Below are positions 16,672 through 35,591 of a stretch of 64,000 nucleotides of DNA, piece after piece. The notes below the pieces were generated by a model, which was given only the letters and a program-made list of their open reading frames with translations, made no database searches and was not told where the DNA came from. Source of the DNA: Candidatus Omnitrophota bacterium (lineage in GTDB: Bacteria > Omnitrophota > Gorgyraeia > Gygaellales > Profunditerraquicolaceae); the NCBI GenBank assembly GCA_041651115.1, contig JBAZJY010000002.1, positions 350,855 to 414,854 of the forward strand, read 5' to 3'. Positions within the stretch are counted from its first letter, which is position 1. Every line of letters starts with the position of its first letter. The translations under genes and the position numbers were made by a program.

Positions 16672-16746
16672 GCCGAGGTAGCTCAGTGGTAGAGCGCGGC
16701 CCTGAAAAGGCCGGCGTGGGGGGTCCGATTCCCTCCCTCGGCACCA
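16672..16746 (+). tRNA. tRNA-Phe (anticodon GAA)
   Basis: Cloverleaf folded by hand: acceptor GCCGAGG/CCTCGGC, D-arm GCTCAGTGGTAGAGC, anticodon loop CTGAAAA, CCA encoded. Confidence 0.85.
16724..16743. repeat. attL: 20 bp core (tccgattccctccctcggca) inside the tRNA-Phe 3' end
   Basis: Identical 20-mer recurs at 33650..33669. Confidence 0.8.
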
Positions 16747-16919: not shown

Positions 16920-18044
16920 ATGAAAATTCAGGAACTGAGGGAAGATTTAACAGTTTTAGGGTTAGGGGATAATCTTAATTTAGCTGTATTGCTATATTTA
17001 TCCGCAACAGCCAGAAAGACCTCGTGCAAAATCTCCGTTCTTGTTTCCGGCCCTGCAGGATTAGGTAAATCTCATCTTGCCAAGAAGATATTAGAATTAT
17101 TCCCGTCAGAAGATATTATCGTAAGCTCCCGGATGACCCCCGCCGGTCTTATGGGGCTTGAAGATTTAAGGGGCAAGATCCTGTTTATTTACGAACGTTT
17201 TGAAGATCCGCTATTTGCTCAATACATTCGGGAGCTGATGACAGAGGGAGAAGTCAGGTATACCACGGCAGACGGCGAACGGTGTCTGAAGGGCCCGGTT
17301 ACCTTAATCGAGACTACCGTTAATCACAACATCATAGGTGCCGAGAACAGGTCGAGGTGTTTTGTGGTCGGCATAAATACTTCTCTCGAAGCAAAAAATG
17401 GAATTCTGGAGAAGCAGAAGGCGTTAAGAACCATGGAAGGTTTTCGTTATCAGGAGAATTTTGATTCTATTCAGAAAAAGCATAGGGAATTCCACCAAGG
17501 GTTAGACGAGTCTTTGTGGGTTATAATTCCCTTTGCGAAGAATATCAAATTTCAAGCCTCTCCGCATCACGCCCCGCGGATACTCCAGCGTGTCCTCAAT
17601 GTTATCGCAACTATAGCATATCTAGACCAGAATCCAACTCGTGTCGTCACTGAAGGCGGCACACGCTACATTGAAGCTACAACGACTGATTTCGAAGAAG
17701 CAAGGCAGCTACTTACCAATATTCCTATTGAAGAAGACGGTTCTCTGCTTTCTTATAAGGAGGTGGAATTTATTAATATGCTAAGAAGTCAAAGAGAGAG
17801 GCTGTCCAGAAAAACCTTTTTTTCGCGCAATGATTTATTGAATGCGTTGCCTCAAGAGAGCCCTTACAGGAGCTATAAGGTTGTTTCTAAAATCCTTGCT
17901 ACCATTAGTAGGCTTGGTTTCATTGATGAACTTCCGCTGCGGGGGATAAAGAATAGGGTAGAGTATCGTTTCAATAAGGAGTTTCCGTATATGTCTGAGG
18001 GGAATTCGATGTTGACGTGCTACTCAACGCTGAGTTTGGCGTAG
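16920..18044 (+). CDS. SF3-helicase-like P-loop NTPase (phage/plasmid primase-associated type)
   Basis: Walker A GPAGLGKS, acidic Walker-B-like FIYERFED, TTVNHN motif-C-like; first gene of the island. Confidence 0.5.
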   Translation: MKIQELREDLTVLGLGDNLNLAVLLYLSATARKTSCKISVLVSGPAGLGKSHLAKKILELFPSEDIIVSSRMTPAGLMGLEDLRGKILFIYERFEDPLFAQYIRELMTEGEVRYTTADGERCLKGPVTLIETTVNHNIIGAENRSRCFVVGINTSLEAKNGILEKQKALRTMEGFRYQENFDSIQKKHREFHQGLDESLWVIIPFAKNIKFQASPHHAPRILQRVLNVIATIAYLDQNPTRVVTEGGTRYIEATTTDFEEARQLLTNIPIEEDGSLLSYKEVEFINMLRSQRERLSRKTFFSRNDLLNALPQESPYRSYKVVSKILATISRLGFIDELPLRGIKNRVEYRFNKEFPYMSEGNSMLTCYSTLSLA

Positions 18045-18080
18045 TTTTGCCATAAGGCAGGGGAAGCAGATCTTGAGTTA

Positions 18081-18815
18081 TTGAAATTAGTTAGGTTAAA
18101 AATTTTAGTTTTGCCAGTTTTCACAAAAGAAAGGAATGACAAAATGGAAGACTTTAGAATTAAATACCGGCCACAAGATATGTCAGAAATTTGGGGCAAT
18201 GAATGTTTGAAAAAAAGATGGGCTGGGTATCTAAGGAGAAAATCTCCGCCTAAATCCATAATCTTGCACGGTAACTACGGCGTAGGCAAAACTACCCTAG
18301 CAAGGATTATTGGAGGGGATATCTTAAAACTCAGAGATAATAATTTTGGTTTATCTGGGGGTTTTCACGAATTGGATTCAACTAAGCTTGATTCTGAAAA
18401 CCTAAGAGGGTTTTTATCTAAGATTACGGGATATGTTCATGGAACTACGGTGTTGTTTTTTGACGAATTCCAAAGGATGCCCCCAAAGGCCCAAGAGATA
18501 CTTTTAAAGCCCGTTGAAGAGGACGACGATCTGTTTTGTGTCTTTGCAACAACGGATATGAACAGCATAGACGGCGGTATCCAATCAAGAAGCGATAAAT
18601 TCATCATCCAAAAACCCTCAATGGCGATCCTGATAGAGAAGCTTACTGAAATAGCCGAAAAAGAGGATATTGAGATTACGAAGGAAGCCTTGGGGTTTCT
18701 CATCGAGTTAGCTGATTATTCTCCACGCGAGTGCTTGGGGAATCTCTATTCTTTTGGGGGTTCCGATGGCATTATTGACGGAAAAGTGGTGCAACAATTC
18801 TTAAACCCTGATTAA
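18081..18815 (+). CDS. AAA+ ATPase, clamp-loader (DnaX/RFC-small)-like
   Basis: HGNYGVGKTTLARII Walker A, LFFDEFQRM Walker B, CVFATTD sensor-1. Confidence 0.6.
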   Translation: MKLVRLKILVLPVFTKERNDKMEDFRIKYRPQDMSEIWGNECLKKRWAGYLRRKSPPKSIILHGNYGVGKTTLARIIGGDILKLRDNNFGLSGGFHELDSTKLDSENLRGFLSKITGYVHGTTVLFFDEFQRMPPKAQEILLKPVEEDDDLFCVFATTDMNSIDGGIQSRSDKFIIQKPSMAILIEKLTEIAEKEDIEITKEALGFLIELADYSPRECLGNLYSFGGSDGIIDGKVVQQFLNPD

Positions 18816-19036
18816 GCAATAAAATTTTAAAATTCTCCGACGAGAAAATAAATTTAACTAAAAAATCCCTTGACAAATATTATCCGCTATGGTTTTTATT
18901 TATTTGTAGATGTGATGTAACATACTGTAAATAAATGAGTTATGTGTCAGGAGCGAAGCAGGGAATTATCAATTTTTCTCTGTAGCAAGAGCAATATAGG
19001 CATTATTAAACTTTTTCTCCGTGAGAGGAATAGATA

Positions 19037-20275
19037 TTGTCCGATTCAAAGAATAGAACTCCCCGGAGCCATATTTATAGGCGTCACAGGATGCACAGCC
19101 AGTCAATCATTGAACTGGAGCAGGCGATGCTGCCCGTCAAAGCGGCGATGCAGGCGCGCGGGCTCAATATCTGCTTGGAAAAATTAGATAGCCTAATCAA
19201 TAAGATTAACCATGAAAAATCAGACATAGAGTCTAACCTTCGCTCAAGCCTCGGCATTAAGGGCGAGATAAATTTCAACAGCTCAAAGGATATCGCGGTC
19301 ATTCTTTCCGCGGCCTTAGGGGTTAAATTGCTTAAGAGCCGCAGCGGTAGATTTATTACGAACAGGCAGGTTCTCCAAAATTTCAATAATCCTTTGACTG
19401 AAACTATTGCCCAATATCGCAACCTGCAAAAGATTTTGTCTTCCCTAACGGCTGTTTATGGAGCAACTGACAAAGCGGAAGCTAAACTATCCTGCATCTA
19501 TACTGATGATTGCCCCAGCGGTCGGCTTTATACCAAAAACTACAACATCCAAGGCATCGGCGAACTCTGCCGTGGTGTCGTTTATCCTGATGAGGGCTGT
19601 TCGTTTATCTTAGCGGACTACGATAGTTTTGAATTGCGAATTCTTAGCGCACTTGCCCACGATACCTATTTTAAAGACTGCTGGTCTAAAGGTTTGGATT
19701 TACACCGTAAAGTAGTCAGTGATATGAAAGGGATTCCCTACGAATCCGTAACTGCTAAGGAACGCAAACTCGGAAAATGTCTCAATTTCGGTCTTGCATA
19801 CGGTCAGGAGCCTCATGGATTGGCGCGTAATCTCCGTATTCCCGTTTCTGAGTCTTCTAAGTTAATGGCTGGCTATAAAAACAAGATTCCTAAGATTGAA
19901 GAATTTAAACGGGAGTCAATCCGTTCAGCGCATATCACCGGCTACACTAAGACTTACTACGGTCGCAAGCGCCTGCTTCCTGAAATCCTATCTTCTAATC
20001 TCCTCGATGCAAAGAAAGCTGAGCGGCAAGTCATTAATACCAAGATCCAAGGCACAGGGGCAGACATTGTTAAATTCAGCTTAGTTAAATTACATAACGC
20101 CGGGTTTAAAATAGACACCATGTTACACGACGGGATTTTAATTACGGTCTCAGACGATAAGGTCGACAGCAGCATTCAGAAGATCAGGGAAATTATGGAG
20201 ATAGAAATTGAAGGGATGAAATTTACTACTTCTATCAAAACCGGGAAGACGTGGGGCCAATGTCACCAATCTTAA
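19037..20275 (+). CDS. Family-A DNA polymerase, polymerase domain only (no exonuclease domains)
   Basis: Motif A ADYDSFELRIL, motif B KLGKCLNFGLAYG, motif C MLHDGIL; TTG start at 19037 or ATG at 19091. Confidence 0.75.
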   Translation: MSDSKNRTPRSHIYRRHRMHSQSIIELEQAMLPVKAAMQARGLNICLEKLDSLINKINHEKSDIESNLRSSLGIKGEINFNSSKDIAVILSAALGVKLLKSRSGRFITNRQVLQNFNNPLTETIAQYRNLQKILSSLTAVYGATDKAEAKLSCIYTDDCPSGRLYTKNYNIQGIGELCRGVVYPDEGCSFILADYDSFELRILSALAHDTYFKDCWSKGLDLHRKVVSDMKGIPYESVTAKERKLGKCLNFGLAYGQEPHGLARNLRIPVSESSKLMAGYKNKIPKIEEFKRESIRSAHITGYTKTYYGRKRLLPEILSSNLLDAKKAERQVINTKIQGTGADIVKFSLVKLHNAGFKIDTMLHDGILITVSDDKVDSSIQKIREIMEIEIEGMKFTTSIKTGKTWGQCHQS

Positions 20276-20293: not shown

Positions 20294-20427
20294 TTTTTAA
20301 CTTTTTTGGGCTGGCAAAAAGCTACCTGTTTATTGTGTATGGTCATAGTTTGACTTGTGCTGGGAGATTTTATGCTGATAAATGATTTTACCTTTTGAGC
20401 CAAAAATAACCCAACCTATGCCCTGTT
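20294..20427. repeat. 134 bp direct repeat, copy 1
   Basis: Perfect match to 24463..24596; contains promoter-like TTGACT-N17-TGCTGATAAAT. Confidence 0.9.
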
Positions 20428-20793: not shown

Positions 20794-21399
20794 ATGACAA
20801 TACAAGAGCGCTACGAAGCATTAAAAGGTAAAGTCGTTAAGAGAAAGAAGGAATTCGATTCCTTCATAAAGATGTTGGAGTCAGAGTCAAGTTGGCTCAC
20901 AAGTCCGGCAAGCACGAGGTTCCATTTGAACAAAGAAGGTGGGCTTTTGGAGCATAGTGTTGGCGTTACTGAAACTCTCCTGAAATTCAGAGAGTTCCTC
21001 GCTCCTCAAATATCAGAGGAATCTTGCGTAATTGTTGGGCTTCTTCACGATGTCGGCAAGATAGGCATGCCTGGCAAACCTAGGTATTTGAAGAATGATA
21101 ACCAATGGGAGATCGATAAACGAGGTATTACCTATAAGATCAACCCCGCAGAGGTAGATATGAATCTTGCCGCACGCAGCTTGTATCTCATTGCAAAATA
21201 TATCCCGCTTTCTGACTCAGAGGCCCAAGCTGTTCTTTATCACGATGGCCAATTTTTAGATTTTAACAAGGAAGTGGCGCATAAAGAGACGCCCTTGACT
21301 CTTTTAGCGCATTGGGCTGATTACTGGACGGCGCATATCTATGAAGAAGGCCGTAGCATTAATGAAGATAGTGATTATTATACTGGAGATAGAAAATAA
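20794..21399 (+). CDS. HD-domain phosphohydrolase
   Basis: H..H, LLHDVGK and a late D motif of the HD superfamily. Confidence 0.7.
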   Translation: MTIQERYEALKGKVVKRKKEFDSFIKMLESESSWLTSPASTRFHLNKEGGLLEHSVGVTETLLKFREFLAPQISEESCVIVGLLHDVGKIGMPGKPRYLKNDNQWEIDKRGITYKINPAEVDMNLAARSLYLIAKYIPLSDSEAQAVLYHDGQFLDFNKEVAHKETPLTLLAHWADYWTAHIYEEGRSINEDSDYYTGDRK

Positions 21400-21401
21400 A
21401 T

Positions 21402-22355
21402 ATGTATCAACCAATGCATTCAGATTTTCTTATACACTGGACAGGCAAGGACATTGATGCAAAATATGACCCTAGGTGGTATACAGGACATTCATCGCGG
21501 ACAAGTGAGAAGGCTATCAAGTTATATTTGCAGCGTCTTAAAGGCATCTTATACCACGGCTTGTGGATGACAAAGCGCAGAGAAGATGAGACGGTTGTTA
21601 TTTATGATAACAATGGGAAGAGAAGAAAAATTAAGAGACCAGAAACAGCGAGGATATGTTTTACTGAATTGCGGCTGTCTGACGCGCGGGCTCATGCGAA
21701 AAAGTTTGGAAGGTTAGGTATTGGATTTAAAAGATTTTTTGTATTCAACCTTTTAGGAGCTCCCGTGGTCTATTTTCATCCTCAGAGAGCTAACTGGTTT
21801 TTTCCTCCTTATTTCGACTGGTTCAAAAAGATTGGCAAGGAAGCGTATTTCTCATGTTTTTTGAAAAAGATGGGGGAGAAAGATAGGAAAGACAGGACTT
21901 GGAAGTATAAGTTTTTCGATGAATCAGAATGGCGCGTAGTGTATTCTCCAGAGATTAAAGAAAAATTAGTAAGTATGGGGAGAACTGATGTATGTTCCGG
22001 ATTTAAAGAATCCGGAGATAAAGAATTTAAGAGGCTTGAAAGATATTTAGAAAAGACTGGCATAAAGGAGAGGCCGAGTTATCTCATTCCTATAAATCCA
22101 TCTCGGTGGTTCGCTATGATCATTTATCCTAGTTTAGCTGTAAAAGTCATAGCCGAAAGGGATCCCGATATTAGAAGAATTATAAATAAACTGAAATCTG
22201 GCAGAGAGAGCGTGGATGGGATGGAAGCAACCATCAGCAAAGATTGGCCATCAGGGGTATCTTCCGTCGGAGCTATCGGGAAGGCCAAATCGGCTTCCCT
22301 TGAAGATTTTAATCTGCCAATTCAGATTGACTTAGACGCTTGTAGAAATTTCTAG
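21402..22355 (+). CDS. Hypothetical protein (317 aa), function unknown
   Basis: ORF translationally coupled to the HD gene (stop and start 2 nt apart). Confidence 0.5.
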   Translation: MYQPMHSDFLIHWTGKDIDAKYDPRWYTGHSSRTSEKAIKLYLQRLKGILYHGLWMTKRREDETVVIYDNNGKRRKIKRPETARICFTELRLSDARAHAKKFGRLGIGFKRFFVFNLLGAPVVYFHPQRANWFFPPYFDWFKKIGKEAYFSCFLKKMGEKDRKDRTWKYKFFDESEWRVVYSPEIKEKLVSMGRTDVCSGFKESGDKEFKRLERYLEKTGIKERPSYLIPINPSRWFAMIIYPSLAVKVIAERDPDIRRIINKLKSGRESVDGMEATISKDWPSGVSSVGAIGKAKSASLEDFNLPIQIDLDACRNF

Positions 22356-22371: not shown

Positions 22372-23136
22372 ATGAATATACTTATTACAAATGACGATGG
22401 TATCAATTCTGATGGTATCTTCACTTTGTTCGAAGCGGTTAAAGAGCTTGGTAATGTAACCGTTGTAGCCCCTGATTCAGAACGAAGTGCCGCGGGCCAT
22501 GCTATAACGATATCCGATCCTTTGCGCGTGAAGACAGTGAACCGTAACGGTAAGTTTTTTGGATATGCGTGTTCAGGGACACCGGCGGACTGCGTCAAAC
22601 TAGCTGTAAGGGCATTGATGAAGGATAAACCCGACATAGTCATATCCGGGGTTAATCTGGGCCCAAACACTGGTTTTAGTGTTTTATACTCTGGTACGGT
22701 ATCAGGAGCAACTGAGGGTGCAATATTAGGCATACCAGCCTTTGCAATATCTCTGGGAACTTTCGATAACCCTGATTTTAGTATAGCAGCTGAATTTGCC
22801 AAAAAATTAGTAGTTCTGCTTAGAGAAAAAGGTCTTCCGAAGGGAACCCTGTTAAATGTCAATATCCCTGCTGTAAAAAATAGAAATGATATCAGAGGCA
22901 TAAAGGTTACTACTCAAAGCAAGACTTCATTGGTAGAGCATTTCGATAAGCGGGAGGATCCCCGTAAACACGTCTATTACTGGCTTACAGGTGAGCTGAT
23001 AGAGTTGGACGGGGAGGAAGATAGTGACATCAAAGCACTACGGGATAATTTTATCTCCATAAGCCCCGTTCATTGTGATATGACTAACCGCGCCTTTATC
23101 GATGAGCTAAAGAAGTGGGATTTTGAGAGGCGTTAA
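22372..23136 (+). CDS. surE: 5'/3'-nucleotidase SurE
   Basis: MNILITNDDGINSDGI N-terminus and a SurE-like core. Confidence 0.85.
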   Translation: MNILITNDDGINSDGIFTLFEAVKELGNVTVVAPDSERSAAGHAITISDPLRVKTVNRNGKFFGYACSGTPADCVKLAVRALMKDKPDIVISGVNLGPNTGFSVLYSGTVSGATEGAILGIPAFAISLGTFDNPDFSIAAEFAKKLVVLLREKGLPKGTLLNVNIPAVKNRNDIRGIKVTTQSKTSLVEHFDKREDPRKHVYYWLTGELIELDGEEDSDIKALRDNFISISPVHCDMTNRAFIDELKKWDFERR

Positions 23137-24206
23137 AATATATTAAAGGCCCGGCTGCAACCCAAGCTTTTGTTTTTTAAATACCAGCCTAAATTATCCA
23201 ATTCTCTATTGTCTTTTACGATCTGTTCGTAAATGTCCTCCCAAGTCAGATGGGTAAACCGCTTTTTGTATTCAGCTTTTAACATAGAGCGGACATTACG
23301 CATAACAGGCATGCTTTCAGGCTCGCCGCGCTTTAAATTCATCGCGTGCCTGTTCCTTAAGTTCACTACATACCATCTTTTCGCGCCTTCCAAATGAGCC
23401 ATTGATGCAGCGAATACAATATTCCTAAATAGCTGCTCGTAGAATGGGTTCGGCATATCACTAAAATCAAATATGCTGTTAGTATCTATTAGTTTGTTAT
23501 GGGTGCAGTATCTCGTTATTGACCTATCTGCTGCTTTTGGCTTTTCGCCCTCAACATCTTCTTTTTCTTTTGCTATAGAGTTTTTACTCCCAAACTTAGC
23601 CTCTATACATATGATAACCTTATTCGGGACGACAAGCATTATGTCCGGTTCAGTAGCGAATCGCTTTATATCACTTTCAAGGTGCTTGCGAACATCTAAT
23701 AGAGGGGCGTAAGGCGTGAATTTATTGTTTTTAAGATCAATCTTTCCGCCCCACAGATACAAGTCTACCTTATCCTTTATATCTTCATTGATTATTTGGC
23801 TCGCTAGTTTATTTAGCGCCAGTCCGTTTGATAGTAGCTCCGTAAATACATTGTAAGATACCGCATCTTCGCTGTTTTCATAGCACAGCCTTCCAGATTC
23901 CATTTTGTTGCCTTTTTTGAAGAAATTTGCTATGTAGTATTCTCCATTGAATAATAAATTACGCTTGGTGGCGGTCAGCAGGTTTGAGTCAAAGGGCCCA
24001 TTATAATATACGAATCCATTGGTATGTATCCGCAGGCCGTGTTCAGGGCAGAAGGGTAAATATCTCATTTTACCCTTGAAGCGCTGGAAGGGAACCTTAT
24101 GGCTATGGGTATCTGATGAGCAGTTTTTGATTGGGCAGCTATTAGGAAGTCTCGTTTTTTGAAGGTCGTTTCTGAAGAATGATATTGTGCAGCTTGAATC
24201 GGGCAT
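23133..24206 (-). CDS. PD-(D/E)xK-type nuclease with N-terminal Cys-rich (Zn-ribbon-like) region
   Basis: PDIMLVV...IICIEAKF matches a D..(D/E)xK core; CPIKNC...CPEHG; convergent with surE. Confidence 0.5.
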   Translation of the reverse strand: MPDSSCTISFFRNDLQKTRLPNSCPIKNCSSDTHSHKVPFQRFKGKMRYLPFCPEHGLRIHTNGFVYYNGPFDSNLLTATKRNLLFNGEYYIANFFKKGNKMESGRLCYENSEDAVSYNVFTELLSNGLALNKLASQIINEDIKDKVDLYLWGGKIDLKNNKFTPYAPLLDVRKHLESDIKRFATEPDIMLVVPNKVIICIEAKFGSKNSIAKEKEDVEGEKPKAADRSITRYCTHNKLIDTNSIFDFSDMPNPFYEQLFRNIVFAASMAHLEGAKRWYVVNLRNRHAMNLKRGEPESMPVMRNVRSMLKAEYKKRFTHLTWEDIYEQIVKDNRELDNLGWYLKNKSLGCSRAFNIF

Positions 24207-24462
24207 AGGTTATTTTTCATTGTAGCTCCCTAAAATAATAAGGGAGCGCATATCTGCTACCGGCAACGTTCAAGTAAATCCGATAGAGCTGCATTTCTCC
24301 CTGCCCTTTCGGGCAACGAAACAGCTCCACCATACTTGAACGTTCACAGGGCTCTCCCCTGTGTTATGGTAGAAACGAACTGCTCCTGATTGTAAAAACT
24401 AACTAAAGTATATCAGCCGGTTAGGTTATTGTCAATTGAGCTATGTTAGGAAGCATAGTTAT

Positions 24463-24596
24463 TTTTTAACTTTTTTGGGCTGGCAAAAAGCTACCTGTTT
24501 ATTGTGTATGGTCATAGTTTGACTTGTGCTGGGAGATTTTATGCTGATAAATGATTTTACCTTTTGAGCCAAAAATAACCCAACCTATGCCCTGTT
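24463..24596. repeat. 134 bp direct repeat, copy 2
   Basis: Perfect match to 20294..20427. Confidence 0.9.
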
Positions 24597-24648
24597 TCTA
24601 AATATATCCAATCTTAATCAGGCACGTGATGCTTCTAAGTAAAAGCCC

Positions 24649-24676
24649 TTGACTTTTTCAAAATGTAGCATATAAT
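24649..24676 (+). promoter_or_regulatory. Strong sigma70-like promoter (TTGACT, 16 nt spacer, TATAAT)
   Basis: Near-consensus hexamers read from the sequence. Confidence 0.55.
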
Positions 24677-24683
24677 TTTATTC

Positions 24684-24795
24684 AAGATACGATATAGTGG
24701 TGCGTTACGGAGAGGGAACCTCCACTTTAAAAAAGTAAAATCTCCACGAGCCGATTGCTCATGCACATTTGCGCTTGTGGGGATTTTTTATTTTA
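24684..24795 (+). ncRNA. Candidate sRNA (about 110 nt) with its own promoter and intrinsic terminator
   Basis: No ORF; internal ggagaggg/cctcc hairpin; terminator stem tctccacgagc/gcttgtgggga plus TTTTTTATTTT at 24741..24795. Confidence 0.4.
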
Positions 24796-24911
24796 TAGGG
24801 AAATTAGCTTGGTTAATTGACAAGACGAAAGGTAGGTGAATAATCTTTTAGGTATCTTGAGCGACCGAGTTTAAGTATAAAAACTATAAATATTGAAAAC
24901 GGAGGACTTAA

Positions 24912-25142
24912 ATGGGTAAAAATCAGCACGTTGTGCCTTATGGTGATAAGTGGGCAGTTAGAGGTGAGAAAAACAGCAGGATAACTTCTGATCACCACAC
25001 GCAGGGAGCGGCGATTAGTGCTGCAGTAAAAATAGCCAAGCACGAGAAATCAGAAGTAGTGATACACGGCAGGGATGCGAAGATTCGGGATAAAGATAGC
25101 TACGGATCTGATTCTTGCCCGCCAAGAGACAAAAAATATTAA
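24912..25142 (+). CDS. DUF2188-like small protein (paralog 1)
   Basis: NQHVVPYGDKWAV...EVVIHGRDAKIRDKDSYG pattern; paralog at 27304. Confidence 0.6.
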   Translation: MGKNQHVVPYGDKWAVRGEKNSRITSDHHTQGAAISAAVKIAKHEKSEVVIHGRDAKIRDKDSYGSDSCPPRDKKY

Positions 25143-25272
25143 AATACTAGAGGGGCATGAAAATGCCCCTCAGTTCTAATGTATTTTTGTGGCTTATAGA
25201 AGGAAATGGTAATATAATACAATATGAATCATAAGGGATAGTATATACAGATGCAGGACAAGATATCCTAAA

Positions 25273-26019
25273 ATGAAAAATATTGAAACTATAGGTCTTT
25301 TTAAAAAAATATTACAGCCCGCATTTATTATAACTATTGCTACGTGTGTAGGATATCTATGGGGTTGGCATTATATAGATGGTTATTTAGAACGTTTTGG
25401 ATTAAATCATGATTCCTTTGAATTTTCTTTAACCTATTATTTGAATCAGTCGTTCTTTATATCCATTTTTCTTGCAATGATTTTGTTTTTTTCCATAGGT
25501 AGAAAAAAAGATTCTCAGTTGACTATCCCTCAAGCCTTTCAGCAGAACTCAATCATTTTATTATTTTTAGGAATTGGCTTGTCGATGGCATTTAAAGATT
25601 TTCCCTCCCCGAATGCAATAATGATACTGTTAAATTCATTAATTTTGTTAATTTATTTTGTTAGATTAAGCTGTAAGAAAAAAACGATTATCTCGGTTAT
25701 TGAGAATGAAGGGTCGCCAATAGTATTTCTTTTAGCTTTCTTATTAATGATTTTACTAGGACTTTTGATTAGTAGAGATTTCGGAGAAGAACATGCCCGG
25801 AGGACCATCAGTGGCGCACTTAATAATTTATCTTCGATCTCTTTTGTATCTGATAATCCATCAATCACTGATCTCAACAAAAAAGAATTAAATCTTATTT
25901 TTTATCATAATAGTAACTATTATTTAGTTGAAAAAGAACAGCCAGCGCCTAAGTTCCCTAAAATTTTTATTGTTCCAGATAAGAATATAGAGTATGTAAT
26001 TTGTAAAAAATTTAATTAA
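25273..26019 (+). CDS. Hypothetical polytopic membrane protein (AT-rich gene)
   Basis: Multiple hydrophobic segments; very low GC compared with its surroundings. Confidence 0.5.
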   Translation: MKNIETIGLFKKILQPAFIITIATCVGYLWGWHYIDGYLERFGLNHDSFEFSLTYYLNQSFFISIFLAMILFFSIGRKKDSQLTIPQAFQQNSIILLFLGIGLSMAFKDFPSPNAIMILLNSLILLIYFVRLSCKKKTIISVIENEGSPIVFLLAFLLMILLGLLISRDFGEEHARRTISGALNNLSSISFVSDNPSITDLNKKELNLIFYHNSNYYLVEKEQPAPKFPKIFIVPDKNIEYVICKKFN

Positions 26020-26126
26020 TTTATGATTATATAGTAACTCAATGAACCTATGTTAATGGTGATTGTAGGCGTTGGTAAATATCATGGACAGAGAACACGC
26101 TAAACAAAAATGATTAAAGGAACTAT

Positions 26127-27293
26127 ATGCGCAGAGGCATAGTTGATATCGTACAGGAGAATAGCAGGGACATAGAAAGAAAAATTCTTTCTGAGTTCGC
26201 GACAAAAAGTTGTGATGCTTTAAGGCGGTTACCGGAGAAATTAGGCGTTAGGCCCGATTTCTTTAGGGACACGGATAGGATATTGCATTCTAAATGTTAT
26301 GCGAGATATATTGATAAAACACAGGTATTTTATTTATTTGATAATGATGATATTACTCATCGAGTATTACATGTTCAATTTGTCTCTAAGATTGCCAGAA
26401 CCATTGGTAGAGCTTTAAAACTGAATGAAGATTTAATTGAAGCAATAGCGTTAGGGCACGATGTTGGGCACCCTCCCTTTGGGCATGAAGGTGAAAGTTA
26501 CTTAGACGAACTTTGTTTGCATTACAAAATAGGTCATTTTGTTCATAGTGTTCAAGGAGTAATTTTTTTAGACAAAATTGAGAAAAGAATGGAGATAAAA
26601 CCATTGAATTTAAGTTTACAAGTTTTAGATGGCATACTTTGTCATGATGGCGAGAAATTTAATGATTATTTAATACCTCAAAGAAAGAAAACATGGTCAA
26701 CACATTATAATGAACGAAAGGAGAAGATGTTTAACAAGCAAGTAGCGCTCGTTCCAATGACCATGGAGGGTTGTGTTGTTAGATTTGCGGATGTTGTAAG
26801 CTATATTGGAAGAGATATTGAAGACGCTATAACGCTAAGACTAATAAAAAGACAAGATCTGCCAAGGGAATGTACAAAGGTATTAGGGGATAATAACAGA
26901 GATATAATTAACACATTAGTTACCGATTTGATAGAAAACAGCAAAAGAATTGGCGACAGGATATATTATAGTAAAAGAACCTCTAAGGTTTTAAAGAAAC
27001 TTAAGAAATTTAATGACAAAAATATCTACTTGAATAAAAAAATAAAGAGAGAATCCCCAAAAAATAAAAAATTATATACTCTTCTATTCGAAGAATTTCT
27101 TCATGATATAAAAGTAAAAAACAGTAGATCAGAAATATTTACTCAATGGAGTGACATTAAAGATGCCAAGTATATTTCAAAATGTAGACACCCAGAAATC
27201 GTACGCGATTTTTTGTCATCTCTTACAGATGATTATTTTATAGGGCTTTTTGAACGGAAATTTTTCCCAAGAAGATTTGGAATACATTTCTAA
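26127..27293 (+). CDS. dGTP-triphosphohydrolase-like HD-domain protein (Dgt family-like)
   Basis: H..RxxH at the N-terminus, ALGHDVGHPPFGHEGE signature of the dGTPase family, later D motif. Confidence 0.7.
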   Translation: MRRGIVDIVQENSRDIERKILSEFATKSCDALRRLPEKLGVRPDFFRDTDRILHSKCYARYIDKTQVFYLFDNDDITHRVLHVQFVSKIARTIGRALKLNEDLIEAIALGHDVGHPPFGHEGESYLDELCLHYKIGHFVHSVQGVIFLDKIEKRMEIKPLNLSLQVLDGILCHDGEKFNDYLIPQRKKTWSTHYNERKEKMFNKQVALVPMTMEGCVVRFADVVSYIGRDIEDAITLRLIKRQDLPRECTKVLGDNNRDIINTLVTDLIENSKRIGDRIYYSKRTSKVLKKLKKFNDKNIYLNKKIKRESPKNKKLYTLLFEEFLHDIKVKNSRSEIFTQWSDIKDAKYISKCRHPEIVRDFLSSLTDDYFIGLFERKFFPRRFGIHF

Positions 27294-27303
27294 AGGAGGA
27301 GAG

Positions 27304-27534
27304 ATGAGTAGAAACCAACATGTCGTTCCCTACGGAGACAAATGGGCTGTGCGAAAAGAAGGGAATACTAGGATAACATCTTCACACATAACTCGGAGAG
27401 ATGCTATCCATACTGCGAATAGAATTGCTTCGTCGGAAGCTTCTGAAGTGGTTATACATGGTAGAGACGGGAGAATTCGAGATAAAGACAGTTACGGTTA
27501 CGATGCGTTACCACCACGATGCAGGAAATACTAA
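27304..27534 (+). CDS. DUF2188-like small protein (paralog 2)
   Basis: MSRNQHVVPYGDKWAV...EVVIHGRDGRIRDKDSYG; RBS aaggagga; ORF-track start 27250 rejected. Confidence 0.6.
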   Translation: MSRNQHVVPYGDKWAVRKEGNTRITSSHITRRDAIHTANRIASSEASEVVIHGRDGRIRDKDSYGYDALPPRCRKY

Positions 27535-27686
27535 TTTTTAAAGAAAGAGGACTCATTAATCTGAAAGAAATCAAGGCTGTCAAGAGAGGTAGTAGTTGGC
27601 ATGATCTCACCTTTTAATATCGTCAAGAAAGGTCAAAAATATAGCCTTTGTTAATTCCATTTAGTCCCCCCTATAAGTGAATACTA

Positions 27687-27935
27687 TCAAGCTAATTTAC
27701 ACTCGAATTCATCTAAGTCCTGCCGGCTTTTAGCAATGATTTCTTTTATGCATGTCTGGCAGTAAACCTTTCTTCCCATGCTGCCGGGAATAGGAACTAC
27801 AATGCATACAGTTCCTCCGTAAATCGCTGTGTTGCACCTTTTGCAAGTTCGTTTTCCTTTTGCAGTGTCTAATTTTGGCGCTCCATGTGTTCCATTGATA
27901 AGAGAAGGACATTTTCCACGTTTTTTACTTATCAC
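27687..27935 (-). CDS. Small Zn-ribbon protein (82 aa)
   Basis: CKRCN...CIVV...CQTC Cys quartet; directly downstream of the helicase and overlapping it. Confidence 0.45.
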   Translation of the reverse strand: MISKKRGKCPSLINGTHGAPKLDTAKGKRTCKRCNTAIYGGTVCIVVPIPGSMGRKVYCQTCIKEIIAKSRQDLDEFECKLA

Positions 27936-29952
27936 CCTTAGCCTCCTTTTTAGTTAAGCGTCTTGTTAGGACATTGAGAATATTGTCAAGGGCTTCTATC
28001 GCTTTTACATAGTCTTCAGTTCGTAACTTTTCCCGTTCGCCTTTTTCAATTCCGAGCTGCTTATTTACCTCATGATTTATAAGTTGGACAGCGGCTGCAA
28101 AGTTAGGCCCAGTGACTCCACTACTCTGAGCAAGTTTATAGGCTAAATCTTTTCCGTCAAATGAGATGTCCAAGCGATTCAACAATAGTTTTGCCGCTCG
28201 TTTTACCTCTTCATGCAAACGTCGCTTCGCCTCGTTCCTTTGCCGTTGGGGAATTACAGGGAAAGGTATGGTGGATTCCACTTTGTTTATTTTATCCCCT
28301 TGTTTATTTTTGAGGAATTCTGCTATGTCTTGAGCATCAATTCCAAGTGACTCAGCGGTAGCTTTCATTTCTTCGATAAGTATCTCGTCTTCCACATCAA
28401 TGAAATGTTCCTGTAGGAAGCTATCCACTATTTCATTGCGAATGATCGTAGATTCACTAAGTTTTAATCTTGTACTACCTTCAAGCACCTCTCGAGGAGG
28501 CTCGGGTTCTTTGCCTTTAATAATATCTGTGAAGAATTCTCGGTCGTCCCTGTCAATTTCACGGAAATCAGCAAGATGGGTATCTATGTTAAGCCCAATA
28601 TGTGTTACTATGTGACCATAATTATCAGGGTGTCGAGGGTCATTTTGGACGATGACACGCATTACTCGACCAACGAATTGGACATACGGTGGTAGGGTGC
28701 GGAAAGGCCTAAATATAGCTGCAACACTTAAATGAGGGTGGTCAAATCCCTCGCCGAGCATTTGAACTTGGATAATACAATCTAAGGCGCCCGCTCTCAA
28801 TTTATTTAAGACAGCATCTTGCTCATCGGGTAGCATTTTACTATGGATTTCCGCTGCTTCATAACCACGCTCAGCATATAGAGAGCGTATTGCCTTTGCA
28901 TGATTTACTGAACACGCAACTGCTATTAGTTGGTGCTTTGTTCCAGATTGCCGCAGATGTTCGAGTTTGTCGAGACTTGCGTCTACGATATTTTTATTAC
29001 AGACTGGGGATAAAGCCACACCACGACTAAACCATTCTTCATCTTTTAACACCAATACTTCTTCAAGTGTGTGGTATTTTTCATCACCTTCATATGTAAA
29101 ATAGAGTTCTTTAGGTGCGACATATGTTGCCTGTAATTTTTTTATGTAGCCTTTTATCATTGCCCGTTTGAATGAATACTTGTAAATTAGTTCACCTTCA
29201 ATTTCTTGTTGGTCACTTCTGAATGGCGTAGCAGTTAAATTAACAACCTTTGCATCCGGGAATCTACTAAATACTTTTTTCCAACTCGGGGCCGCACTAT
29301 GGTGTCCTTCGTCTACCAGAATCATATCAAAGAAATTATTTGTAAACTGTGGGAGCCAGCGGTCGGCGCTACTCGCCAGTTGCTGTATATTTGTCAAAAC
29401 AAAATGCGACTGTTCGCAATCATGGATGTTGGCATCGATGCTATCGAGAATAGCAAGATACGGGCCGGCTAAGGTTACGTCCGGATTCAGCACCCGGCAT
29501 TTAAACCAGAAGCAGTTTCTACGATTGGCGATATCTAAAGCCTTTCTTAATTCATCTCTGATGGTGAGATTTGGCGCGATCACGAGGATCCTTCCTTGGG
29601 CAATTCCAAGTGGAAGTAACGTAATGAGCCCTGATTTTCCACATCCAACCGGTAATTGAATTAACGCTTTTTTGGCTCCTTTCTCGAAAAAATTACGGGT
29701 TGCTATGTATGCTTCTTTCTGTGGGTCTCTTAATAGTAAATTGTCTTCTATTTTGAAATCCAGCGAAGCAAAGAAATTACCCATGGATTTATTAGCTTTT
29801 ATCCACTTGTCTAATTCAAGAACTTGGAATCGCCACATTTTTCCTACTTTGTGAGCAGGTATCCGGTTGCTCTGCGCAAGTGCGTATAAATTCGTTATGC
29901 TGATATCAAGATATTTTGCTGCTTCCTCTGCGTTTAGCCATTCTTCTCTCAT
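27925..29952 (-). CDS. HTH (excisionase/MerR-like) + SF2 DEAH/ResIII-type helicase
   Basis: N-terminal LNAEEAAKYLDISITNLY...HKVG.MWRF HTH; Walker A PVGCGKSG; DEGH box; TATP motif III; QFVGRVMR motif VI. Confidence 0.75.
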   Translation of the reverse strand: MREEWLNAEEAAKYLDISITNLYALAQSNRIPAHKVGKMWRFQVLELDKWIKANKSMGNFFASLDFKIEDNLLLRDPQKEAYIATRNFFEKGAKKALIQLPVGCGKSGLITLLPLGIAQGRILVIAPNLTIRDELRKALDIANRRNCFWFKCRVLNPDVTLAGPYLAILDSIDANIHDCEQSHFVLTNIQQLASSADRWLPQFTNNFFDMILVDEGHHSAAPSWKKVFSRFPDAKVVNLTATPFRSDQQEIEGELIYKYSFKRAMIKGYIKKLQATYVAPKELYFTYEGDEKYHTLEEVLVLKDEEWFSRGVALSPVCNKNIVDASLDKLEHLRQSGTKHQLIAVACSVNHAKAIRSLYAERGYEAAEIHSKMLPDEQDAVLNKLRAGALDCIIQVQMLGEGFDHPHLSVAAIFRPFRTLPPYVQFVGRVMRVIVQNDPRHPDNYGHIVTHIGLNIDTHLADFREIDRDDREFFTDIIKGKEPEPPREVLEGSTRLKLSESTIIRNEIVDSFLQEHFIDVEDEILIEEMKATAESLGIDAQDIAEFLKNKQGDKINKVESTIPFPVIPQRQRNEAKRRLHEEVKRAAKLLLNRLDISFDGKDLAYKLAQSSGVTGPNFAAAVQLINHEVNKQLGIEKGEREKLRTEDYVKAIEALDNILNVLTRRLTKKEAKGDK

Positions 29953-32320: not shown

Positions 32321-32508
32321 GTAACCTTTTAACTCCAGAGCAAGTATGCGAGAGGTATGGTATAAGCCGGTGGACGCTCTATCAGTGGACATCCAAGCAT
32401 CTTATACCATATCTCAAGATTAGAGGGCTAAACCGTTTCAGGGAAGAAGATCTTGAGAAGTGGGAAGAACAAAATCTGGTAAGCGATGGGAAGGCTGAAT
32501 TGGTATGA
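32317..32508 (+). CDS. xis: Excisionase / AlpA-like HTH protein
   Basis: QVCERYGISRWTLYQW motif; immediately upstream of the integrase and overlapping it. Confidence 0.6.
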   Translation: MSNLLTPEQVCERYGISRWTLYQWTSKHLIPYLKIRGLNRFREEDLEKWEEQNLVSDGKAELV

Positions 32509-33572
32509 GACAGCGTTATCGAATGCCAAAATCTATTTACCCCCGTGGCAACTGGTATTGCTTTAAGGTAACTACTTCTTATGGCAAGAGAGTCGAGGTT
32601 AAGTCAGCCACCATGGAAGAGGCGCGTAAGAAACGCAACGATATAGAGCGTCAGATATTCAGTGCCGTGTCTGGAGATCCATCCTATAGAGTTAGCCTTG
32701 AGCATGGAATAGGGTTTTGGCTAAAAATTAAGAAAGGAAGTATCGACGATACCTCATATGATAGATACCGGGGATGTTTAGATAACTTCCTTGATTATAT
32801 TAAGGCAAAACGCTCCGATTTACAATATTTCGACCAAATAAAAGCGGAGGACATTAAGGCATTTATGGACTATCGGATCGAAGAGAAGGGGCGGGCGACT
32901 AAGACCGTGAATTCTGAAAGGCTGGCTTTATACAACTTATTTCTTACCTTGATTAAACATAAGAAAATTGAAGGTAGTAATCCCGTGGAAAATGTTGACC
33001 CATTAAAAATGATTAAGGTCCAAAAGAGGCATGCTCTTTCTGATGAGGAATTGTTGAAATTTCTTGAGGGTGCCAAGGCAGAAAGCGGGGCTATTAATTG
33101 GTATGCTATCTTTCTTACCTTATATATAACCGGCATGAGAAGGGATGAGGTTCGGAAGATGGAGAAAACAGCAATAGACCTGTCCAGAAATCTGATAATT
33201 ATTTTGAACACCAAAACCGATAAGCCAAAGATCATACCGATACATCCTGAATTGCGGCCAGTATTGCAGCAGGCGTTGGGGCAGTCCAATAGCGGCTTGG
33301 TATTTCCTAACTCTAAAGGCGGGCTGCTTCATAAGAACAAAATTCGGGATAAGATGATTCAGATATGTGAGAGGGTCGGTATCCCTAAAGCAACGGTTCA
33401 CGATTTACGCCATACATTCGCGAGCCGCCCAGAATTATCCGGTATGGCCAAGCAACTTATAGGCGGTTGGAGCAGCAAGCAGGTAATGGAGAAAACCTAT
33501 ATTCACGCCCCCGAGGATTATGTTCGAGATGAGTATTTTAAGGTTAAGTTCATACCGAAGGCAGGAAACTAA
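32505..33572 (+). CDS. int: Tyrosine integrase (phage integrase family)
   Basis: Conserved R...HDLRHTFAS...Y catalytic region; adjacent to attR. Confidence 0.85.
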   Translation: MRQRYRMPKSIYPRGNWYCFKVTTSYGKRVEVKSATMEEARKKRNDIERQIFSAVSGDPSYRVSLEHGIGFWLKIKKGSIDDTSYDRYRGCLDNFLDYIKAKRSDLQYFDQIKAEDIKAFMDYRIEEKGRATKTVNSERLALYNLFLTLIKHKKIEGSNPVENVDPLKMIKVQKRHALSDEELLKFLEGAKAESGAINWYAIFLTLYITGMRRDEVRKMEKTAIDLSRNLIIILNTKTDKPKIIPIHPELRPVLQQALGQSNSGLVFPNSKGGLLHKNKIRDKMIQICERVGIPKATVHDLRHTFASRPELSGMAKQLIGGWSSKQVMEKTYIHAPEDYVRDEYFKVKFIPKAGN

Positions 33573-33649
33573 TGTCACGCTATCGTCACGAAAGGATGTT
33601 GCAAATGTCAGAACCTTCTGATAATATAGATAATTATGCAAAACCGGGA

Positions 33650-33669
33650 TCCGATTCCCTCCCTCGGCA
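33650..33669. repeat. attR: second copy of the 20 bp tRNA-Phe 3' core
   Basis: tccgattccctccctcggca identical to 16724..16743. Confidence 0.8.
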
Positions 33670-33680
33670 TTTAAATTTTA

Positions 33681-33709
33681 AGAGGGGTTATCGCAACCCC
33701 TCTTTTTTA
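33681..33709 (+). terminator. Intrinsic terminator (probably the ancestral tRNA-Phe terminator)
   Basis: agagggg...cccctct stem plus a T-tract. Confidence 0.5.
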
Positions 33710-33727
33710 TTGGGGTTTTATGCGCCT

Positions 33728-34900
33728 ATGAAGATAAAATACCTGAGATTATTGGATAAATATTTAGGGTTTTTGCTGATCCTGGCTATCCACTTAGCTA
33801 AAATATTCAGCAAAGCGCCCCATTTTTCCGGTAAGCAGAAGGTAGAAAAGATACTGATCATCAAGTTCTGGGGTTTCGGGAGCATAATTTTAGGGTATGA
33901 TTTTTTTCAAGCCATACGCAAAGAATTTCCCGGCGCGCATATCTGCGTCTTAACCCTGAAACAAAACCGCCAAGTTTTTGAGATCAGCGGGATTTTCGAT
34001 GAAATAATTGATATCGATATAAGGGACCCGCTGCGTTTTGCGATAGATGCCGCCAGGGCAGTCATTTATTTAAGAAAGAAATCTTTTGATGTTTCTTTTG
34101 ACTTGGAATTCTCGGCAAGGTTTTCGGCCTGCATATCTTGTCTGATCAATGCCAGGCGGAGGGTGGGTTTTCAGTACGACGGCATCTGGCGAGGGAATTG
34201 TTTTTCGGATCTCCTGCATTTCCGGGAAGACGCAAAACTAAAAGATTCTTACCTGGGAATGATTTATCGTATAAAGAGCGATGCCGCGGCGCCTTCCCGG
34301 CCGCTTGAATTAGAAATTGGAAATGAGCAGAAAGCGATTGTTGATGATCTGCTTAAGAAGGAATCTTTAAAAGGTGCGGGCCCGCTAGTCGCGATCAACA
34401 TAAACGCAAGCGAATTATGTTTATTAAGGCGCTGGCCAAAGGAATATTTTGTTATTTTAGCCGAAGAATTGATCAAGCTGTATTCTGCGCGTATAATATT
34501 TATAGGTTCAGAAGAGGACTTTCATTATGTAAGTTCCGCGATCAGCCTGATACAGCCGGGCCGGAGGGAAAGTATCCGTAATTTTGCGGGTAAAACTTCT
34601 TTGGCGCAGTTGGCTTATTTAATGACAAAATTCAGGTTATTTATTTCTAATGACAGCGGGCCTTTGCATTTAGCCGTTTACTTAAAAGTTCCCTCGGTTT
34701 CCTTCTTCGGCCCGGAAACCCCGCTTATTTACGGGCCGGACAGGGCAGCAGATACGGTATTTTATAAAAACCCGGGCTGCAGCCCGTGCATCAGAGTCAA
34801 GAATTATAAGTTTGCCAAATGCGGCAATAACCACCTGTGCCTGAGAGAAATAAAACCATCCAGCGTTCTCGATGAAATCAGAAGAAAAAAATTACTTTAA
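33728..34900 (+). CDS. Glycosyltransferase family 9 (heptosyltransferase-like)
   Basis: KILIIKFWGFGSIIL N-terminus and GT9-like core; start moved to ATG 33728 to clear attR and the terminator. Confidence 0.7.
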   Translation: MKIKYLRLLDKYLGFLLILAIHLAKIFSKAPHFSGKQKVEKILIIKFWGFGSIILGYDFFQAIRKEFPGAHICVLTLKQNRQVFEISGIFDEIIDIDIRDPLRFAIDAARAVIYLRKKSFDVSFDLEFSARFSACISCLINARRRVGFQYDGIWRGNCFSDLLHFREDAKLKDSYLGMIYRIKSDAAAPSRPLELEIGNEQKAIVDDLLKKESLKGAGPLVAININASELCLLRRWPKEYFVILAEELIKLYSARIIFIGSEEDFHYVSSAISLIQPGRRESIRNFAGKTSLAQLAYLMTKFRLFISNDSGPLHLAVYLKVPSVSFFGPETPLIYGPDRAADTVFYKNPGCSPCIRVKNYKFAKCGNNHLCLREIKPSSVLDEIRRKKLL

Positions 34901-35591
34901 CGCGGTAGCGGATTCCTTTGACGCGGACTTTAATGCATACTCCCGGCCTGCGGGCATATTGCGGGTAGAGAAGCGCGTAAAACTTTTTATGGAATATTGC
35001 AGCCTGAAACCCGGCCTTAAGATTTTAGAAATTGGCTGCGGCACCGGCGAATACAGCAAGGCCTTATTTGGGCGCGGGCTGAATTTATTTGCCACTGACA
35101 TATCCTTTAATATGTTGAGGCATGCCAAAAATAAATTAAATAGAACAAAAAGGGTAATGTTCTTTGTATCGGATATCAGCCTGTTTCCTTTTGCGGCAGA
35201 TAGCTTTGACGTAATTTTAGGCAATTCTATTTTACACCACTTAGAAATTGAAGAGTCCCTTAAAGAGATACACCGGGTTCTAAGAAAAAATGGAAGATTT
35301 GCTTTTTCGGAGCCGAATATGTGCAATCCGCAAATATTCCTGCAAAAAAGAATAAAATCCCTTAAAAAACTTGTCGGCGATTCTCCGGGAGAGAAGGATT
35401 TTTCCCGTTGGGCGTTAAGGAGGATGTTTGAAATGGCAGGCTTTAAGAATATAATTGTTAGGCCGTTTGATTTCCTGCATCCCTATACTCCGGCAGCGTT
35501 GGTTAAGGCTGCCGATAAAATAGGCACGTTCCTGGAAAGGACGCCGTTAAGGGAAATCGCAGGGTCGTTATTTATCACAGGTGAAAAATGA
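34872..35591 (+). CDS. Class I SAM-dependent methyltransferase
   Basis: LEIGCGTGEYS motif I. Confidence 0.75.
   Translation: MKSEEKNYFNAVADSFDADFNAYSRPAGILRVEKRVKLFMEYCSLKPGLKILEIGCGTGEYSKALFGRGLNLFATDISFNMLRHAKNKLNRTKRVMFFVSDISLFPFAADSFDVILGNSILHHLEIEESLKEIHRVLRKNGRFAFSEPNMCNPQIFLQKRIKSLKKLVGDSPGEKDFSRWALRRMFEMAGFKNIIVRPFDFLHPYTPAALVKAADKIGTFLERTPLREIAGSLFITGEK

Follow-up and report, generated by a model that had tools for sequence, protein, structure and literature searches.

Within a 64,000-nucleotide (nt) stretch of a Candidatus Omnitrophota genome (GenBank assembly GCA_041651115.1, contig JBAZJY010000002.1, positions 350,855 to 414,854; hereafter the window), a low-GC segment encodes a predicted deoxynucleoside triphosphate (dNTP) triphosphohydrolase of the dGTPase family, directly followed by a small gene of the DUF2188 family. 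We refer to these as the dNTPase and DUF2188-B, and to a second DUF2188 gene farther upstream, separated from the dNTPase by a membrane-protein gene, as DUF2188-A. The ~1.4 kb dNTPase-DUF2188-B pair belongs to a clade-specific conserved operon, an association that is solid within eight independent metagenomic contexts. The pair points to a so far undescribed form of anti-phage nucleotide depletion that uses two genes.

Judged from its sequence, the HD protein is a dGTPase-family enzyme with an intact active site. It passes the TIGR01353 dGTP_triPase model (159.6 bits; cut-off 152.35) and the Pfam models HD (44 bits; cut-off 22) and HD_assoc (29.8 bits; cut-off 22.2), and it matches the PADLOC dGTPase model (1.2e-49). 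All equivalog models fail, for example the housekeeping-type NF002327 (280 bits against a cut-off of 393). The best relative in the PDB is the T. thermophilus dNTPase TT1383 (2dqb, E 1e-29), and the predicted metal ligands H82, H111-D112 and D222 align with its motifs. The catalytic dyad H120/E123 lies 9 and 12 residues past the HD within GHDVGHPPFGHEGE (residues 110-123), the same spacing as for H126/E129 of E. coli Dgt. Invariant in an alignment of 41 homologs are H78, H82, H111, D112, H115, H120, E123, H140, H173, E176, D222, R229, D230 and D233. The dNTP triphosphohydrolase chains 9p8s-9p8v, which we assume to be Clover CloA, are distant (E 1e-8 to 1e-11). The second-best PDB relative is 9vwa, a dGTPase-like protein (1.6e-21) and presumably the Vibrio octameric enzyme of PMC13519002.

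Close homologs of the dNTPase (63-85% identical) are all metagenomic, and a neighbour-joining tree groups the clade as a single split. The enzyme gene is directly followed by a DUF2188 gene in seven of the eight independent contexts that had flanking DNA, namely the window, L001/L002/L087, L003-L005, L006, L088, L089 and L091 (labels of fetched loci; L001, L002 and L087 have the gene order DUF2188, enzyme, DUF2188 and are counted as one element). The spacing between the two genes ranges from -4 to +12 nt, a GGAGG-type ribosome-binding site is present at every junction, and orientation is conserved; in the window, DUF2188-B starts 10 nt past the dNTPase stop codon behind a GGAGGA site. Extra upstream or downstream DUF2188 copies vary among loci (the order in L006 is enzyme, DUF2188, DUF2188), and it is the immediate downstream copy that is kept. 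Besides the gene pair, the clade loci share no sequence with the window except a short conserved upstream element in L001/L002/L087. Pairwise identities of the enzyme and of its partner DUF2188 correlate at r = 0.80, with pairs that are not independent of one another. A metagenome scan for close dNTPase relatives yielded two loci only, and sequenced plasmids and phages held no close relative (36% identity at most).

The dNTPase lies among defence genes both in the window, where the neighbours are AbiGi-like, REase-ARP, DRT-type PolA and ResIII helicase genes, and at the homolog loci, which carry type I restriction-modification, EVE/PDDEXK and Multi_ubiq/ThiF genes and a UvrD-type helicase beside a PDDEXK protein. 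The sister clade member P0019 adjoins a SIR2 gene.

Outside the clade the linkage disappears. Two profile hidden Markov models found DUF2188 near none of 81 more distant homologs, comprising 80 GTDB genome loci (40-57% identity, searched within 6 kb) and L092 (57%); seven of eight within the clade against none of 81 outside it gives a Fisher p of 1.2e-9. The 80 GTDB homologs sit in a housekeeping setting, with the lineage-conserved neighbours RimK, TPR, peptidase U32, GreA, MutS, UppS and sigma-70. The association is specific to the clade and not general to DUF2188, because none of 88 independent DUF2188 contexts (80 IMG/VR contigs, L104-L183; four annotated plasmid or phage records; four metagenome contexts) holds a dGTPase. 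In the literature searched, which included Burroughs & Aravind 2020 only as cited elsewhere, we found no paper linking DUF2188 with dGTPase.

The original prediction, made by a model from the letters and open reading frames (ORFs) alone, had described a 388-amino-acid (aa) dGTPase-like HD protein. The Pfam HD and HD_assoc, TIGR01353 and PADLOC matches bear this out, and the metal-binding His/Asp set is complete on alignment. The prediction also placed the protein in a family of phage-defence effectors, which holds for the dGTPase family and for the location in a defence island but not for the validated anti-phage dGTPase family (116 of the 400 bits demanded by NF041026). Systematic adjacency of DUF2188 to dGTPases, which it proposed to check, holds within the clade and fails among DUF2188 contexts chosen irrespective of the enzyme.

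The two DUF2188 genes of the window encode proteins 68% identical over 76 aa. They are old paralogs rather than a recent duplication, because their DNA is ~70% identical with many synonymous differences. On sequence comparison A and B are different lineages, A conserved and B fast-evolving and tied to the dNTPase. A-type copies (window A and those of L001, L097, L099, L101 and L103) are 62-88% identical and keep the tail IRDKDSYGxDxxPPRDxK, while their neighbours change: a dCTP deaminase ~1 kb upstream in L097 (PADLOC dCTPase, 1.5e-152), a PD-T4-6/mad6-type kinase 69 nt downstream in L099, a Schlafen/AlbA_2 protein 40 nt downstream in L101, and QatA and QatC downstream in L103. B-type copies, those directly downstream of the enzyme, are 31-66% identical to one another; relative to the window they retain 39-66% identity, against 64-82% for the enzyme. 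In the comparison of the window with L001, A (83% identity) is the most conserved, ahead of the enzyme (74%) and B (56%). The closest homologs of DUF2188-B are P0135 (87%) and P0136 (79%). That A stays conserved while its neighbours change points to a common target; the rapid evolution of B and its tie to a single enzyme point to a cognate interaction. We also considered DUF2188-B as an A/B chimera with a B-like N-terminal half and an A-like tail. This was rejected; the tail is ancestral, because the closest dNTPase-linked relatives, P0135, P0136, P0167 and P0181, keep it.

Two further observations concern the A-type genes. In L097 (940-3623) and L098 they occur near a defence-type dCTP deaminase, and DUF2188 is thus found near both known classes of nucleotide-depleting defence enzyme. 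Directly upstream of A-type DUF2188 in L002 (5152-5376), L099 (4773-4997) and L100 (192-416) is a gene for a 74-aa Cys-containing protein, 74% identical between loci, with the motif ...GCQIDEF...NCAKCIG... and no PADLOC match; L001 has a truncated copy and the window has none.

Elsewhere DUF2188 occurs mostly as a stand-alone gene, in 491 plasmid records (mainly Klebsiella) and 235 IMG/VR contigs, with 20 of the 80 IMG/VR examples examined lying within 500 bp of a contig end. It also occurs in Streptococcus prophages. In Javan35 (L094), the sole one examined, it lies between the repressor and antirepressor genes.

The DUF2188 model (predicted local distance difference test, pLDDT, 84) has three strands, a helix and two strands, then a less confident but highly conserved tail. 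The fold has no significant PDB match; phmmer against the PDB with DUF2188-B gave only spurious zinc-finger matches, and a PDB profile search with DUF2188 found a designed repeat protein and not 5JN6. There is a weak match to the HicB-like protein of phage Nibb (E 0.33), and a relationship between DUF2188 and HicB-N has been proposed independently from HHpred searches (PMC13621843). Pfam, PADLOC and NCBIfam scans gave no HicA match upstream of DUF2188-B, where the gene is the HD dNTPase. In hicAB operons the toxin gene comes first and the small partner lies downstream.

So, what might this gene pair do? The reading that we consider probable, if only modestly so, is a horizontally acquired two-gene dNTP-depletion defence module inside a tRNA-Phe-integrated defence island, with DUF2188-B as the cognate regulatory partner of the enzyme. 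The dNTPase would hydrolyse dGTP and/or other dNTPs to deoxynucleoside and triphosphate, and the loss of dNTPs would starve phage DNA replication. DUF2188-B, immediately downstream and apparently co-translated with the enzyme, would most likely act as a HicB-N-like binding module, keeping the enzyme in check before infection, an antitoxin logic with a hicAB-like gene order. Clover provides a precedent for a defence dNTPase that can require a dedicated partner to restrain it (PMC12265719). DUF2188-A would be a separately transcribed paralog, probably acting on a common target rather than on the dNTPase, and the membrane gene between them would be an unrelated insertion. We infer the defence role, the physical interaction of enzyme and DUF2188-B, and whether that interaction inhibits or activates. 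A labile-inhibitor model for DUF2188-B would fit the finding that T7 escapes dGTPase defence by mutating its own inhibitors of host RNA polymerase (Tal et al.); DUF2188-B may equally be an activator or sensor.

A broader proposal, offered tentatively and rather unlikely to hold as a whole, is that DUF2188 is a minimal HicB-N-like module gating defence effectors, with B as the labile inhibitor of a mobile dNTPase and A as a shared control gene. If true, this would be a protein-antitoxin-controlled dNTP-depletion system and a concrete candidate mechanism by which defences based on nucleotide depletion detect that a phage has shut off host gene expression. DUF2188-A would then stand at the head of interchangeable cassettes (dNTPase, kinase, Qat, Schlafen-like and membrane effectors), driven by a promoter of its own and carrying a structured leader RNA.

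Several observations weigh against the regulated defence module. The linkage rests on eight independent contexts, all metagenomic, and one clade member, L090, has no DUF2188 and instead a small helix-turn-helix (HTH) gene upstream. The dNTPase reaches only 115.9 bits on the anti-phage dGTPase model NF041026 (cut-off 400), and its wider family is housekeeping. DUF2188 is mostly stand-alone on plasmids and prophages and can thus function where no dNTPase is present. Similarity to HicB does not reach significance (3k6q; Foldseek E 0.48, template-modelling score, TM, 0.39), and DUF2188-B and the enzyme are both basic (isoelectric points, pI, of 10.0 and 9.3), with no obvious charge complementarity. 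The enzyme could also be an ordinary housekeeping dNTP-pool regulator that was horizontally acquired, given its closeness to housekeeping-type models (NF002327 at 280 bits; 2dqb), the conserved core neighbourhoods of its 40-57% homologs, and the rarity of defence linkage among distant dGTPase homologs (Tal et al.). We regard this as very unlikely: all clade members examined occupy variable, defence- or mobile-rich neighbourhoods with no shared flanks, the GC content of the dNTPase gene is foreign to each host locus, the window gene lies inside an island bounded by attachment repeats, and the sister clade member P0019 sits beside SIR2.

Other readings concern DUF2188. In one, DUF2188-B is a sensor or activator, which would turn on the dNTPase after binding nucleic acid of the phage or an intermediate of replication. 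With pI values of 9.5-10, both DUF2188 copies are basic, their fold may be a simplified RNase H-like or dsRBD-like unit, and divergence much faster than that of the enzyme (39-66% against 64-82%) is expected of a component facing phage variation; yet no nucleic-acid-binding motif was identified in DUF2188, the fold has no significant structural match to a nucleic-acid binder, and the HicB-N analogy favours protein binding. We judge this reading unlikely. That the two genes are not functionally coupled, DUF2188 (PDC-S16) being an autonomous small defence or mobile-element gene that hitch-hikes beside the dNTPase clade, is a doubtful reading. The stand-alone copies in 491 plasmid records and 235 IMG/VR contigs, the lack of any dGTPase in the 88 contexts and the A-type copies beside unrelated systems speak for it. 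Set against them, the enzyme-DUF2188 pair is all that seven independent backgrounds have in common, the junctions are tight (-4 to +12 nt) and the orientation conserved, partner divergence tracks enzyme divergence, and the immediate downstream DUF2188 is kept while extra copies vary. The original prediction had correctly noted two DUF2188 paralogs ~70% identical in protein and read the duplicated small gene as a hint of two effector-DUF2188 pairs, one large partner having been lost or swapped; in such a scheme the membrane protein would be the effector of DUF2188-A. A-type genes do occur directly upstream of single large genes (the kinase of L099 at 69 nt, the Schlafen-like gene of L101 at 40 nt), and in the window DUF2188-A lies 130 nt upstream of the membrane gene. 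Little probability can be given to this scheme, however, with a hairpin after DUF2188-A, the membrane family absent from the fetched loci, A placed directly before the dNTPase in L001, L002 and L087, and A-type proteins 62-88% identical beside unrelated neighbours, a poor fit to a cognate partner. DUF2188-A instead belongs to a separate conserved lineage beside unrelated defence genes.

The coordinates of the gene pair and of the surrounding features are collected in Table 1.

Table 1. Features of the low-GC segment and the surrounding island, in window coordinates (position 1 is the first nt of the window)
Feature	Position	Strand	Size and evidence
tRNA-Phe	16672-16746	+	ARAGORN; left copy of the flanking direct repeat at its 3' end (16720-16743)
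Perfect 134-nt direct repeat	20294-20427 and 24463-24596	+	Second copy just upstream of the DUF2188-A promoter region
Conserved non-coding leader	24649-24800	+	~80% identical to the region upstream of A-type DUF2188 in L001, L002 and L087
Sigma-70-like promoter, near-consensus	24649-24676	+	TTGACT, 16 nt, TATAAT
DUF2188-A	24912-25142	+	76 aa; Pfam PF09954 DUF2188, E 4e-21, 75.3 bits; PADLOC PDC-S16, 1e-30
GC-rich 9-bp hairpin right after DUF2188-A	25150-25171	unstranded	T-run on + strand weak
Polytopic membrane protein	25273-26019	+	248 aa; hydrophobic helices; AlphaFold model
HD/HD_assoc dNTP triphosphohydrolase (predicted; dGTPase family)	26127-27293	+	388 aa; Pfam, TIGR01353, PADLOC
DUF2188-B	27304-27534	+	76 aa; Pfam DUF2188, E 7e-22, 77.8 bits; PADLOC PDC-S16, ~1e-30
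Tyrosine integrase, right end of island	32505-33572	+	Pfam Phage_integrase
Right copy of tRNA-Phe 3'-end repeat, probable right attachment site	33646-33669	+	23/24 nt identical

GC content falls to 0.28-0.35 in 400-nt windows between ~25200 and 27400, against 0.40-0.46 in the flanks and 0.447 over the full 64 kb. A sharp fall at ~25150-27300 had been predicted, along with the four ORFs and the polytopic nature of the membrane protein, and all of this was found; the predicted order, each large gene followed by a DUF2188 gene, is wrong for DUF2188-A, which precedes the membrane gene. The gene upstream of DUF2188-A is REase-ARP (23133-24206), on the opposite strand. NCBI labels the four genes, in order, DUF2188, hypothetical, HD domain-containing and DUF2188, and both DUF2188 matches lie well above the Pfam gathering cut-off of 22 bits. 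The low-GC "sub-island" signal is a property of the travelling dNTPase gene and is not specific to the window, because the gene is AT-rich (31-35% GC; GC at third codon positions, GC3, of 0.22-0.31) in all eight loci with a close homolog, whatever the local GC. A separate insertion lacking the DUF2188 genes was considered as the source of the GC drop and rejected; the GC3 values of DUF2188-B (0.34) and the enzyme (0.27) are close, and every locus shows the same contrast.

The membrane protein has four or five hydrophobic helices. Its AlphaFold model (pLDDT 91.6) shows a helical transmembrane bundle and a C-terminal five-strand beta domain, with no Pfam model and no PDB fold match. It belongs to an unnamed family with 174 representatives, whose alignment is too diverse for a locus scan. 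No homolog was found in the 183 fetched loci, every other A-type locus included, and there was no match in plasmids or phages; a word-indexed search found only the protein itself. These searches offer no link in support of a membrane effector paired with DUF2188, as originally proposed. The simplest reading is that the gene was inserted between A and the dNTPase in the window lineage, because L001, L002 and L087 have A directly before the enzyme, followed by B, with no membrane gene.

The region before DUF2188-A, at 24649-24800, comprises a putative promoter and then a putative structured leader or small RNA of ~110 nt ending in a terminator-like hairpin. Two hairpins lie in the leader: a small one, GGAGAGGGnACCTCC, and a long one with an A-run on one side and a T-run on the other (folding z = -3.75). 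Matching positions are 4890-5035 in L002 and 5146-5291 in L087; the comparison amounts to effectively two distinct sequences, too few to judge covariation. Rfam gave no match in 23500-28500. The hairpin right after DUF2188-A may be a terminator. The 134-nt repeat occurs in only two copies in the window, with sharp borders, and brackets the block of HD gene, AbiGi-like, SurE and REase-ARP genes; it may reflect duplication of a promoter or regulatory region, or a scar left by recombination. Neither the leader motif nor the repeat occurs in IMG/VR.

The low-GC segment sits inside an integrated tRNA-Phe island of ~16.9 kb, because the tRNA-Phe 3' end recurs just past the tyrosine integrase. The features of a tRNA-integrated island, namely a tRNA, an integrase and a far-border repeat of the tRNA 3' end, are all present. 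The right repeat falls in the 5' end of an ORF (33572-34900, Glyco_transf_9), the true start of which is probably later. Island genes include two AAA ATPases, SurE, the REase-ARP nuclease, the HTH-ResIII helicase and a serine recombinase. The two AAA-type ATPases lie at 16920-20275 together with a 412-aa protein that comes after them, has a family-A DNA polymerase domain and matches RTasPolA, a PADLOC DRT model (1e-27). At 20794-22355 a 201-aa HD-domain protein has an AbiGi-like protein directly after it (Pfam AbiGi, 5.8e-6; PADLOC, 1.1e-7), and the two may form a separate two-gene defence unit. Between defence-type genes, at 22372-23136, lies a full-length SurE 5'/3'-nucleotidase that scores above equivalog cut-offs and has GC near the genome bulk. 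On the minus strand at 27687-29952, an HTH_17 (MAD1-like) and ResIII/Helicase_C protein overlaps by 11 nt an 82-aa ORF that has four-Cys spacing like a zinc ribbon and no slot in the NCBI protein numbering. Just outside the island, a B12-binding radical SAM protein (35588-37006) matches the PADLOC candidate PDC-M51A (8.5e-12).

Antiviral depletion of dNTPs by HD enzymes is well established, with SAMHD1 and the bacterial dGTPases as examples, and the restraint or triggering of bacterial dNTPases is known in few cases, Clover among them. The widespread DUF2188 family, so far known only as a defence-island candidate (PDC-S16), would gain a testable function from a conserved operon with the dNTPase. 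Defence dNTPases would gain a second type of dedicated partner, and a housekeeping dNTPase lineage would be seen to have become a mobile defence gene.

By mechanism the window enzyme should work like the known defence dGTPases (Sp-dGTPase, NF041026; the dGTPase systems of DefenseFinder and PADLOC), with which it shares the HD dNTP triphosphohydrolase class, the defence-island location and the expected dNTP depletion. It belongs, however, to a different subfamily, closer to TT1383/PRK01286, and defence linkage was found only among homologs at least 45% identical to Sp-dGTPase (Tal et al.). Sp-dGTPase-type systems are also single genes, whereas the window clade has a conserved downstream DUF2188 gene. 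With the short housekeeping dGTPase-like enzymes TT1383 (2dqb) and PRK01286 it shares the layout of HD, HE dyad (the term used in PMC12265719 for the catalytic His/Glu pair) and HD_assoc, but it falls below the NF002327 equivalog cut-off, lies in a mobile island and has a DUF2188 partner. The resemblance to HicAB lies in a small partner modelled with a core of three strands and a helix, encoded downstream of a potentially toxic gene; there is no HicA here, DUF2188 is without the DNA-binding C-terminal domain of HicB, and the similarity is not significant. DUF2188 has been named as a defence-island gene, PDC-S16 (Burroughs & Aravind 2020, as cited in 10.1101/2022.04.27.489752). The PDC-S16 model is matched by the two copies in the window, but it is treated as a single-gene candidate. 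Neither the neighbours of the window dNTPase nor the homolog loci include a Pol-beta-type nucleotidyltransferase domain, so the system is not Clover, a two-gene system of the CloA dNTPase and the CloB nucleotidyltransferase in which a dedicated partner restrains a defence dNTPase (PMC12265719). The window module is likewise proposed to pair a dNTPase with a dedicated regulator, but its partner is a 76-aa DUF2188 protein rather than an enzyme that makes a nucleotide signal.

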